IMG/VR virus record: IMGVR_UViG_3300019458_000022
Length of the DNA stretch: 64,000 bases
Reading direction: 5' to 3' (one strand)
From: a virus
The translations under genes were made by a program, and so were the position numbers. This document shows positions 48,565-52,964 of the stretch, in pieces (the first letter of the stretch is position 1; each line of letters opens with the position of its first letter). Below the pieces are notes generated by a model, which worked only from the letters and a program-made list of their open reading frames with translations, was not told the DNA's origin and ran no database searches.

Positions 48565-48924
48565 CTAAACCAACTCGAAGAAGAACCGGTAACGACCCGG
48601 CTCTTGTTTCCATTTCGGGATGGTCGCCTCGATGCGTCCGTCCGGATTGCCCCATTTCTCCTGCCGTACGAGATTGAGGAATAGGAGGACGACATCCGGA
48701 TTGTCGGTCCACCATGACCGGACGCCGTCCACCGAATCCTCGCGGCCTTCGGCTTCGTGCCATTCGAACGGTCCCAGGCCCCTCTCGTGCGCGATCCTGA
48801 CGCGATCGGGCCAGTTGAGGCTCGACGCGCCGAACTCGACGTCGTAATCGAGAGGCAACTCTGCCTTCCGGTCCCATACGTGCAGGGCAAGGTGGCAGCC
48901 CATGATCGTATCCCTGAGGTTCAT
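48565..48924 (-). CDS. hypothetical protein
   Basis: ATG overlapping upstream TGA. Confidence 0.6.
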   Translation of the reverse strand: MNLRDTIMGCHLALHVWDRKAELPLDYDVEFGASSLNWPDRVRIAHERGLGPFEWHEAEGREDSVDGVRSWWTDNPDVVLLFLNLVRQEKWGNPDGRIEATIPKWKQEPGRYRFFFELV

Positions 48925-49241
48925 TCGATTCGTTCGAGAAATCCGTATTCGTGCGGAACGGAGCGCACGTCTTCGAGCGAAAGTTCGGCGCCTTCCCGCT
49001 GGCGACGGAGGAGCCGGAAGCAGAGCGCGACATCGCCCGGTTCCATGGAGACGGCGATCCGGTTGAGCGGGATCTCGACCCCGCATAGCTGCGTGAGGAG
49101 AGCGGCCGTTCCCTCGTGGCCGACCGCGCTCGTCCAGCCGGGCGTGCGCAAGAAGGCCACGGCTTCTTCCATCGTGGACTTGCGGAAACGGTACATGCCG
49201 TAGCTCGTGAGAATCGGCGTGTTCAGGATATAACGGGCCAT
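48921..49241 (-). CDS. AcrIII-1 / DUF1874 (STIV B116/YddF) ring nuclease homolog
   Basis: YILNTPIL, SAVGHEGTAALLTQLCG, NRIAVSMEPGDVALCFRL, REGAEL; AGGAGG RBS; open in frame upstream to 49583. Confidence 0.8.
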   Translation of the reverse strand: MARYILNTPILTSYGMYRFRKSTMEEAVAFLRTPGWTSAVGHEGTAALLTQLCGVEIPLNRIAVSMEPGDVALCFRLLRRQREGAELSLEDVRSVPHEYGFLERIE

Positions 49242-49600
49242 GCTCCTCCTATCCCAGTCCGGCCAGGAACACGTCCCGCACCGGTCCCGACCGGCGATCC
49301 AAAGCAGCGCGTACTTGTACCCCCGTTCCAGGCACCGGGGACAGTACGACGCTCCCCGCGACGACCCCGGAACGTTCCCGTTCCGGATGTCCGCGATCGC
49401 ATGCTCGTGGGTCCTTGCCGCTGCCTCGTCCCCGGCCTTCGCGCGCAGCCGATGCGCTCTCGCCGCGAGCGATCGCCAGTGGGTCTCGGATTCCGGAACG
49501 ACCCCTGAAAGCCTCTCGAAGGTCGTGGTCTCTCCCATCGTATCCTCCGGAAGTCGGATACGGGTAAGACCGTTCCCGCTCATGGCATGTTTCACCCGGG

Positions 49601-50374
49601 TCAAACCTCGCCCTCCCGGCGCGTGAGGACTTCGCAGCCATTGTCGGTGACGGCGACGGTATGTTCCCAGTGGGCCGCAAGGCCGCGACCCTTGTTGATG
49701 ACGGTCCAGTTGTCGGGGAGGACGGTGACGTCGCCGTTCCCGACCACGAACATGGGCTCGATCGCGATGCAATGACCCGGTCTGAGGACGAAACGGTCCA
49801 CATAGGGTTCTCCCGTCACGAAGTTCGGGACGTTCGGTTCCTCGTGCATGTTCCGTCCGATTCCGTGACCGCAGAATTTCCGGACGACCCCGTAACCGGC
49901 TCGCAGGGCGACGCGCTGAATGGCCGCACCGAGGTCACCCAGGGTCGCGCCCGGTTTCACCGCCTTGATCCCTTCCTCCAAACCCTGCCGGGTCGCCTCG
50001 ATGAGCTTCTTGGCGTCGTCCGGAACCGTGCCAATCGCGAGCGTGACGGCCGAATCCCCGACGTATCCGCGATAGGTCGCACCCGCGTCGATCTTTAGGA
50101 CGTCCCCTTTTTTCAGGCGCCGGTCGTTGGTCGGGATTCCGTGGACGACCTCCTCGTTCAGGGACGCGCAGATCGAGGCCGGGAACTCGCGATAGCCCTT
50201 GAAGGTAGGCACCGCGTCGCAGGAGCGGACGTGCTCTTCGAACGCGCGGTCGAGATCCGCGGTCGTCGCTCCCGGAACCGCCCGTTCGGTCAGCATCGAG
50301 AGGCCGCGGGCGACGATCTTCCCGGCCTCGCGCATGAGGTCGATCTCCCACCCCTCCTTCACGATCGCGCCCAT
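49601..50374 (-). CDS. map: methionine aminopeptidase type I
   Basis: KIDAG...GDSA, GHGIG...HEEP, IEPM, HWEHT. Confidence 0.95.
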   Translation of the reverse strand: MGAIVKEGWEIDLMREAGKIVARGLSMLTERAVPGATTADLDRAFEEHVRSCDAVPTFKGYREFPASICASLNEEVVHGIPTNDRRLKKGDVLKIDAGATYRGYVGDSAVTLAIGTVPDDAKKLIEATRQGLEEGIKAVKPGATLGDLGAAIQRVALRAGYGVVRKFCGHGIGRNMHEEPNVPNFVTGEPYVDRFVLRPGHCIAIEPMFVVGNGDVTVLPDNWTVINKGRGLAAHWEHTVAVTDNGCEVLTRREGEV

Positions 50375-50865: not shown

Positions 50866-51261
50866 CTAGTTCTTGTGGGCGACCATAAGCGAGGCCGCGC
50901 ACGACGGGCAGAGTCCGAGCTTGGCGACGTCTTCCGGACCGACGACGACGGCCGGGCTCGCGAACCGGCCCAAAAACGCGCGTTTCGCGGCTTCCGAAAA
51001 GAAGCCGAGCGCGAACGCCTCGAAGTCCTCCCGGATCTCAGGCGCCACCTTCTCGGCCGCCGCCATCGCAAGAAGCGCCCGCTCGTCGAGGTCGAAGATA
51101 CGGGCCAGCTTCTTCACGAGCTTCGCCGAAGGCGGGTTCACCTTGGCCTGCTCGAACCCGGAAACATAGCCCTTGTGGGACCGGATCTTGCGGGCGACGT
51201 CTTCCAGGGTCCACCCCTTCTCCTTCCGGCGGCGCTTCATGAGGTCGCCGAACGCGCTCAT
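50866..51261 (-). CDS. XRE-family HTH regulator
   Basis: RRRKEKGWTLEDVARKI...YVSGFEQAKVNPPS. Confidence 0.85.
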   Translation of the reverse strand: MSAFGDLMKRRRKEKGWTLEDVARKIRSHKGYVSGFEQAKVNPPSAKLVKKLARIFDLDERALLAMAAAEKVAPEIREDFEAFALGFFSEAAKRAFLGRFASPAVVVGPEDVAKLGLCPSCAASLMVAHKN

Positions 51262-51301
51262 GGCCCCTCCCGTTCACGAACGACCCGCGCCACAGAAGAT
51301 A

Positions 51302-51319
51302 ACACTTGTTATTAAGTGT
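51302..51319. promoter_or_regulatory. palindromic operator 6 filling spacer of TTGACA-N18-TATCTT (minus)
   Basis: ACACTTGTTATTAAGTGT. Confidence 0.8.
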
Positions 51320-51321
51320 TG

Positions 51322-51687
51322 TCAAGAGGCCGTGTGGTGTTCCGGAGGACCGTAGAGATACGGTCCCTCCCCGCAGGTCGGGCACCTTCCGGGCGTGCAG
51401 CCGTTGCAGAACGCCTCATGCCTGAGGGCGCATTTGAGGAGCATGAAGCCGTGCCGCGCGCAATATGGGGTGTTCGTCTCCAGGAAGCGCCTGATCGCGC
51501 GTCTTCGGGTGACATGCCAAATGACGGCCGCGTACAAGGTCAGCGGCCAGACCAGTTGGCTCAGGAATGCCTCTCGACAGAAGTTTCCGGGCGTCTTATA
51601 ATACGGAATCTTCTCGTACCAGTACAACGCGAACGAGATCCAAGCCATGACAAGCCACGCGACCGTGACGATGAGCCAGGTGCTCAT
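51322..51687 (-). CDS. membrane protein with C-terminal Cys/His cluster
   Basis: two TM; C-rich tail. Confidence 0.55.
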   Translation of the reverse strand: MSTWLIVTVAWLVMAWISFALYWYEKIPYYKTPGNFCREAFLSQLVWPLTLYAAVIWHVTRRRAIRRFLETNTPYCARHGFMLLKCALRHEAFCNGCTPGRCPTCGEGPYLYGPPEHHTAS

Positions 51688-52460: not shown

Positions 52461-52964
52461 TTAGACGCGGTAACCCATCCTGGAGAATTCCTTGAGGAGG
52501 TACGCACGCTCCCTCCCGTCCATTCTCCCGATGAAGAGCTTCCCTTTGATGTGATCGTACTCGTGCTGGATGCCCCGCGCCTCTTTCCCTTGGAAAACCT
52601 CCTTGATCGGCCCTTCGGGCGTCTGGGCCTCCAGGCAGACCTCGGGGAATCGGGGGACATCGACCATGATGCTCGCGAAGGAGAGGCACCCCTCAAGATC
52701 CGTCTCAGGATCGCCGCTTAGGCCGATCTTCGGGTTCCAGAAGACGCGCTCGTCGGCCGGATCTCCGGTGAAGTTGACGACGAAAAGCTGGACGTTCCAG
52801 CCGATCTGCGGAGCCGCGAGTCCGACCCCCTCCACCTCGTACATGCATGCGAACATCTGCCGGACGCGGAGCGCGGCCTCCTCGTCATAGCGCTCAAGCG
52901 GCGAGTTCGCCTCGACGAGCTTCGGATCGGGGTAGTTGAGGATGACCGGGCTATCAAGCGTCAT
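52461..52964 (-). CDS. def: peptide deformylase
   Basis: GVGLAAPQIG, EGCLS, QHEYDH. Confidence 0.95.
   Translation of the reverse strand: MTLDSPVILNYPDPKLVEANSPLERYDEEAALRVRQMFACMYEVEGVGLAAPQIGWNVQLFVVNFTGDPADERVFWNPKIGLSGDPETDLEGCLSFASIMVDVPRFPEVCLEAQTPEGPIKEVFQGKEARGIQHEYDHIKGKLFIGRMDGRERAYLLKEFSRMGYRV

Follow-up and report, generated by a model that had tools for sequence, protein, structure and literature searches.

The locus described here lies in a 64,000-nt window of DNA, the whole stretch analyzed, from the IMG/VR record IMGVR_UViG_3300019458_000022; all coordinates are positions in this window. On the minus strand, a single open reading frame (ORF) encodes a small zinc-ribbon protein followed, in frame, by a DUF1874 domain of the AcrIII-1 ring nuclease type (Table 1). 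The original prediction, made from the DNA letters, described a ring nuclease with an upstream Zn-ribbon extension. Our results favor another reading, which we consider probable: two originally separate neighboring genes were joined into one ORF by the loss of a stop codon, in this element only, and a ribosome-binding site of its own still serves the production of the 106-aa enzyme.

Reading frame, start codons, and junction

The ORF list shows one uninterrupted frame from 49772 to the TGA at 48921-48923. The ATG at 49583 is thus in frame with this stop, as had been predicted, and the frame is in fact open still further upstream. Its 5′ end overlaps the methionine aminopeptidase gene (map) out of frame, so it can be real only below 49600. 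Three candidate starts are found in the frame: ATG 49583, ATG 49538, and ATG 49241. The first is preceded only by a weak GGTGA, and the second lies 5 nt after a Shine–Dalgarno (SD) motif, GGAGGA, a distance within the modal spacing of the element (5–8 nt). The AGGAGG that the prediction assigned to the DUF1874 domain is present at 49250-49245, 3 nt before ATG 49241, which is under that modal spacing.

All 24 distinct homologues of the upstream half begin with M-[GSA]-[DEH]-T-T-T, which aligns with ATG 49538. The proposed start at ATG 49583 is therefore probably wrong, and the long product has 205 aa. As the DNA stands, both a 106-aa product and a long form are possible, as foreseen, the long one being shorter than the ~220 aa first given. 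Because the upstream SD has canonical spacing and the internal one is short, both products are expected; mixed 205/106-aa dimers would be possible, as the enzyme is presumably dimeric. That the long isoform is regulated or localized differently, as the prediction suggested, is speculative.

The junction reads TGG CCG GAC TGG GAT AGG AGG AGC ATG. The second TGG is one transition away from TGA or TAG. In the RNA, the internal SD pairs with an upstream UGUUCCU, yet the fold is no stabler than that of shuffled sequence (z −1.0).

Table 1. Features of the locus and its surroundings in window coordinates
Feature	Position	Strand	Basis or remark
In-frame stretch 5′ of the likely start, 15 codons; most likely untranslated, as a leader separating the small gene from map	49539..49583	-	No homologue residues match before M-[GSA]-[DEH]-TTT
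Shine–Dalgarno motif GGAGGA	49543..49548	-	Read from the sequence; 5 nt before ATG 49538
Zinc-ribbon protein ("N-dom" family), conserved core: Met 49538, helical hairpin (AHR, GDEAAAxTHE), CPRC...CGTC, end W-P	49260..49538	-	Homologues, alignment, AlphaFold2
Six-codon junction D-W-D-R-R-S; contains AGGAGG, TAG 49251-49249 one base out of frame, and TGG 49256-49254	49242..49259	-	Sequence
DUF1874/AcrIII-1/Crn2-type ring nuclease domain, 106 codons plus TGA, own ATG 49241	48921..49241	-	PF08960, PDB, AlphaFold2
Gene of 119 codons, 3′ of DUF1874; its ATG overlaps the DUF1874 stop (ATGA)	48565..48924	-	ORF reading
Methionine aminopeptidase gene (map), directly upstream	49601..50374	-	PF00557, E 2.2e-54
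XRE-type helix-turn-helix gene (50866-51261) and sigma-70-like promoter (51325-51296)	50866..51325	-	Probable head of the transcription unit

A zinc-ribbon family and a ring nuclease family

The upstream half of the ORF is a conserved small-protein family in its own right and ancestrally a separate gene. A first homology search returned proteins of 123–175 aa that match only residues ~15–110 of the long ORF and end there. A dedicated search with the zinc-ribbon module gave 88 clusters of 76–137 aa (E down to 2e-35), all without a name, one of them from a Planctomycetes metagenome-assembled genome (MAG). Pattern scans added 32 related loci: one in a Nitrospiraceae MAG contig, 30 from metagenomes of soil and sediment, and one in a 266-kb IMG/VR contig (L032). 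The family can be described as proteins of ~93–117 aa with an M-x-x-TTT start, AHR, GDEAAAxTHE, CPxC...CGxC-x-W-P, a short tail, and a stop.

The position of this stop bears directly on the fusion. All 28 complete copies among the 32 loci stop 1–10 codons after CGTCxWP, and 11 further homologues end 2–16 residues after the W; the tail most often begins W-P-G (17 of 26). The copy in the window retains every residue that is invariant in the alignment and all motifs of the family, including the CPRC (codons 49343-49332) and CGTC (49280-49269) noted in the prediction, but it does not have the free-standing end of its relatives: no stop follows the tail, and it runs into DUF1874. The stop at the junction in homologues, which the prediction itself had named as a refuting observation, thus speaks against a conserved extension. 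What was called an extension of the enzyme is an independent protein family, free-standing in every other genome in which we found it.

In the AlphaFold2 model of the zinc-ribbon module (pLDDT 85; the two halves of the ORF were modeled separately), a C4 zinc ribbon comes after a short helical hairpin that carries AHR and GDEAAAxTHE. The module is matched by no model in Pfam, PHROG, or NCBIfam. The matches from fold searches were limited to generic helical hairpins (Z up to 6.0 in VIA), rubrerythrin (Z 4.2), and Foldseek rows with E >1; when PDB sequences were searched by profile, nothing beyond generic zinc ribbons such as S27ae and RpoM came up, at E ~0.1 or weaker. A DksA/TraR-type identity was considered and set aside as unlikely, as PF01258 did not match in Pfam at E up to 1 and the predicted helices, at only ~15 residues, are too short; no DksA or TraR chain was among the rows of the fold search. 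Near 41.5 kb, the window has a second, weak match to the module (E 0.004), which spans 23 residues and is due to chance.

Two contigs that carry the module, L004 and L001, share other genes with the window (55–69% and 48% identity, respectively), which places the small gene in the gene pool of related large elements, elsewhere in their genomes. In another group of contigs (L010:2695-6291, and also L006, L007, L028, and L030), which are GC-rich (0.70) and look cellular, the zinc-ribbon gene is located just 3′ of a gene for a protein of 635–864 aa with a YHS domain at its end; in L010, a gene that by eye resembles an ECF-type sigma factor also lies upstream.

The C-terminal 106 codons are a genuine AcrIII-1/Crn2-family (DUF1874) domain, ordinary in kind, in agreement with the domain named in the prediction. 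PF08960, whose cut-off is 26 bits, matches with 72.1 (E 4.6e-20) over profile positions 2–99 of 101, and PHROG 5063 with E 4.7e-18. Among PDB sequences, the domain matches AFV3-109 (2j6b, E 1.2e-11), STIV B116, and SIRV1 gp29/AcrIII-1. The AlphaFold2 model, built on a 52-sequence alignment, has a pLDDT of 95.2. In Foldseek it superimposes on AcrIII-1 (6scf_A) with TM 0.90, rmsd 1.8 Å, and E 5e-8, and on 2j6b and the Crn2 domain of Csx1-Crn2 (8y7g) with TM 0.87 each; no unrelated structure was better than E 0.7.

In AcrIII-1 (SIRV1 gp29), H47 is the general acid and H47A loses >2500-fold of the activity; R85 locks the closed dimer, and R66, N8, T50, and S49 contact cyclic tetra-adenylate (cA4; 10.1101/778746). 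The domain in the window has the predicted GHxxTA motif as G-H-E-G-T-A (His codon 49118-49116), and in the alignment of PDB sequences the His of V-G-H-E-G-T-A corresponds to H47 of 2x4i. This His is nearly invariant (at least 90%) across the 52-sequence alignment. R85, R66, and T50 of 2x4i have their aligned counterparts in R80, R61, and T45, and N7, the likely equivalent of N8, is family-invariant in the homologue alignment. Two differences are seen: Gly takes the place of S49, and the mobile loop has RQREG where the consensus is RLPEG, the P after R80 being replaced.

Given this homology, the 106-aa enzyme should cleave cA4 and so blunt type III CRISPR signaling. As in the rest of the family, a homodimer would bind cA4 and cut it to linear A2 products (A2>P) with the conserved His as general acid, and the removal of cA4 would take away the second messenger that activates type III CRISPR effector nucleases. 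It is also conceivable, though in our judgment improbable, that the domain is active and has a main role other than anti-CRISPR, either in another cyclic-oligoadenylate pathway or in the inhibition of a host protein, as for SIRV2 gp37. That homologue shows no anti-CRISPR activity in native infection, where it is expressed too late for it, and it has another host target, a lysine methyltransferase with which it interacts (10.1101/2023.01.10.523387); the gene in the window, for its part, is in an operon with map and genes of no assigned function, outside a recognized early anti-defense cluster. Against such a role, the conservation of the catalytic His and of the cA4-contacting residues implies selection for cA4 cleavage, and no other ring nuclease is nearly as common in phage genomes as AcrIII-1 (36 of 28,114; 10.1101/2024.09.24.614671).

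The PADLOC profile PDLC01147 ("Csx16") also matches this half (E 1.8e-28, 97 bits, profile positions 3–104 of 105) and, end to end, outscores the Pfam model of DUF1874 itself. Characterized Csx16 is a CARF-like cA4 ring nuclease whose structural link to 2J6B is only weak (10.1101/2024.09.24.614671). For this reason, the label seems to be a naming overlap with DUF1874, under which we file the protein on the evidence of its fold.

A probable stop loss and the competing explanations

The fusion was found in one sequence. None of the 32 zinc-ribbon loci has DUF1874, map, or the peptide deformylase gene (def) nearby, and a search aimed at longer relatives, in which the module would be part of a fusion, came back empty, which is weak evidence. 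From the enzyme side, an exhaustive search collected 1478 DUF1874 relatives; the zinc-ribbon module is present in none of the best 150 of these. The closest (55–56% identity) are free-standing proteins of 110–113 aa whose Met aligns with ATG 49241, a few residues from the YxLNTP strand. In the public protein collection, which lists JGI/IMG, Logan, and ENA as its sources, the exact 106-aa product is found for a 175,429-bp contig, and the long forms are absent; gene callers keep a single start for each stop codon and here evidently chose the internal one. Among GenBank phages, 33 records match the DUF1874 half only and none matches the module. When IMG/VR was scanned for the exact junction pattern, with one additional base tolerated at either G run, nothing matched, and in the literature searched no paper mentions both DUF1874 and a zinc ribbon. 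The fusion is thus a singleton, unique to one sequence and of uncertain significance.

According to the reading that we prefer, the small zinc-ribbon gene would have lost its stop codon in this element. Ribosomes starting at ATG 49538 would then read through into the enzyme and produce the 205-aa fusion, as a by-product or possibly a functional protein, and those starting at the AGGAGG and ATG 49241 would make the normal 106-aa enzyme. Three one-step mutational routes could have led here. A transition from TGA or TAG to TGG at 49256-49254 would imply an earlier tail ...WPD-stop, a type known in the family. Alternatively, the loss of one G would have shifted the TAG at 49251-49249 out of frame; its restoration gives ...WPGLG-stop or ...WPDWG-stop. 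The third route would be a 2-nt loss at an overlapping stop and start, in line with the likeness of the present tail to real tails of the family. The GC content at third codon positions is 0.80 and 0.78 in the two halves and 0.83 in map, which matches the element, and both halves keep all residues invariant in their families. Neither half is therefore decaying, which points to a recent or tolerated event.

At the gene boundaries of the element, a stop followed by an SD and a start is the usual arrangement, and the stop is in the coding frame at ~10 of 16 such sites. At minus-strand examples (e.g., 58017, 53842, 44737, 17861, 9312, and 6902), a TAG or TAA stop abuts the next SD (TAGGAG / TAAGGAGG, N5-8, ATG). 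The argument from the TAG at 49251-49249 is only suggestive, because out-of-frame stop triplets also occur at such boundaries.

Several points weigh against the preferred reading. The fusion is in one sequence only, hence selection for or against it is not measurable. The spacing of the internal SD, 3 nt, is below the norm of the element, so that little of the 106-aa form might be made. The tail D-W-D-R-R-S resembles real homologue tails such as WPDNDPRK, which leaves more than one mutational route plausible. In addition, the late-expressed AcrIII-1 homologue gp37 of SIRV2 failed as an anti-CRISPR in native infection (10.1101/2023.01.10.523387), so that such a role is not assured for the enzyme half.

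The same junction could come from an error in assembly or sequencing. The real DNA would then contain an additional base (CCGGG for CCGG, or GGGG for GGG) or a stop at 49256-49254, and the locus would consist of two ordinary genes with no long isoform. One extra G is enough to restore an in-frame TAG abutting the SD, the usual junction of the element, with a tail ...WPGLG or ...WPDWG; W-P-G is the commonest tail start of the family, and all homologues have a stop at this place. However, out-of-frame stop triplets inside SD motifs also arise by chance in the element, and map, def, and other neighboring genes show no damage, which gives no sign of frequent indel errors. Moreover, no separate small protein >66% identical is in the public collection, where one would be expected had any source assembly contained a stop at the junction; this favors a real fusion weakly, only one contig being counted. 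On balance, we think an artefact rather unlikely.

A further explanation is that selection maintains a functional fusion. The zinc-ribbon module would then regulate the ring nuclease or target it, for instance by acting as an autorepressor of the Aca type or by tethering it to a partner from host or phage, and the free enzyme and a regulator–enzyme fusion would both come from one ORF. Neither half is damaged, both have the codon bias of the element, and the better SD is at the upstream start, so the long form should be made. Other DUF1874 proteins also carry additional sequence: ~45 of the best 150 representatives have N-terminal extensions of many unrelated kinds. A part of these are surely start-calling artefacts, and in IMG/VR an upstream stop lies no more than 25 codons away in most of the 51 DUF1874 loci. 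P0004/P0009 (153 aa) and P0070 (145 aa) represent two Cys-rich kinds of extension. The closest parallel is in two IMG/VR contigs (L043:3821-4327 and L047:3824-4327), in which a ~58-aa protein is in frame with DUF1874 through an SD-encoding K-K-G-G-A-G-M junction with an internal Met; in L044 and L060, a homologue of this ~58-aa module is encoded by a gene of its own. By eye, the module looked like a ribbon-helix-helix protein, which Pfam did not confirm.

A small module in front of DUF1874 is thus in part a recurring theme, and parallels of this kind keep a functional role for the fusion alive as a minor possibility. They are offset by the record of the zinc-ribbon module itself: no second case exists among its ~90 clusters or in the best 150 of the 1478 DUF1874 relatives, it never adjoins DUF1874 in the related loci examined, and it has no recognized DNA-binding or other fold. 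Many stable DUF1874 fusions have no internal Met, and the fact that the SD and ATG are kept here suggests a recent event. We therefore hold a selected fusion to be doubtful. Still less probable, in our view, is the stronger proposal that the junction is a working design, in which one ORF provides a free ring nuclease and a module-tethered version that regulates the operon or docks on a host or viral partner, as a recurrent phage strategy (L043 and L047 and, without an internal start, P0004/P0009 and P0070).

Apart from these extensions, four proteins of ~440 aa among the DUF1874 representatives (P0027, P0046, P0062, and P0072) have an N-terminal DUF1874 domain with the GH motif, a TIR domain (PF13676, E 1e-14 to 2e-16), and more C-terminal sequence. 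They could be cA4-sensing or self-limiting TIR effectors.

Genomic setting, known systems, and implications

The carrier is phage-like, ~175 kb, and GC-rich, with nearly all genes on one strand, many orphan ORFs, and genes in common with the metagenome contig L004. On the strand of the fused ORF, the order is promoter, XRE helix-turn-helix gene, 151-codon ORF, map, fused ORF, 119-codon ORF, and 87-codon ORF. The promoter before the XRE gene is TTGACA-18-TATCTT with a TG extension. The XRE product is a possible regulator of the operon that contains the ring nuclease; its gene also has a weak capH-like match in PADLOC (E 5e-8). The 119-codon gene is probably translationally coupled to DUF1874, because its start overlaps the DUF1874 stop. 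It has no Pfam, PHROG, or PADLOC match, and the clusters nearest to it in the Atlas (score 0.92) are large groups of hypothetical proteins from viruses, one of which has 2081 members. The element encodes two enzymes that process protein N-termini, as peptide deformylase (def, 52461-52964, minus strand) is present in addition to methionine aminopeptidase. PADLOC, run on 10 ORFs, found no cas profile match besides the ring nuclease itself, and TRF, which is poorly suited to CRISPR arrays, found no array.

The locus can be compared with four known systems. It shares with the AcrIII-1 proteins (SIRV1 gp29, 6SCF/2X4I; AFV3-109, 2J6B; STIV B116, 2J85) the Pfam family, the predicted fold (TM 0.87–0.90), the size of the 106-aa form, the equivalents of H47, R66, R85, T50, and likely N8, and a virus-like carrier with no cas genes seen nearby. 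It differs from them in a frame that is open into an unrelated upstream zinc-ribbon protein of 93 aa, in the Gly for S49 and RQREG for RLPEG, and in its carrier, a bacterial-type GC-rich element of ~175 kb and not a crenarchaeal virus or small phage. The Marinitoga Csx1-Crn2 protein (8Y6Z/8Y7F/8Y7G; PMC7293037) likewise has DUF1874 at the C-terminus of a longer polypeptide, and the fold thus tolerates an N-terminal partner. In Csx1-Crn2, this partner is a cA4-activated CARF-HEPN RNase in a type III CRISPR locus, whereas in the window it is a small protein without an assigned function, in a phage-like element, with the internal start kept.

Bifunctional anti-CRISPRs exist, such as AcrIIA1, in which an N-terminal helix-turn-helix acts as an Aca repressor. 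As in that type, a small putative binding domain is N-terminal to the anti-CRISPR moiety in one ORF; unlike it, the module in the window has no shown DNA-binding fold or operator, the operon is already headed by an XRE gene, and the fusion is not conserved. Internal initiation in frame also gives long and short isoforms of IF2 (alpha and beta), ClpB, and CheA, and is conserved across species. The upstream start, the internal SD and ATG in one frame, and the common C-terminus are the same here, but the arrangement in the window is unique to one sequence.

The enzyme half represents one more ring nuclease of the AcrIII-1 type, in a very large GC-rich phage-like element, and its presence makes it reasonable to suppose, as the prediction did, that the host of this element may use cA4-signaling type III CRISPR. 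The analysis also brings to notice a fairly widespread zinc-ribbon family (~90 clusters) without a name or known function. The fusion can be regarded as a case, caught in the act, of how multidomain anti-defense proteins may arise from neighboring phage genes. If the long isoform is not functional, the locus would be an ordinary gene with read-through; if it is functional, it would provide a handle on the zinc-ribbon family and on the regulation of ring nucleases.

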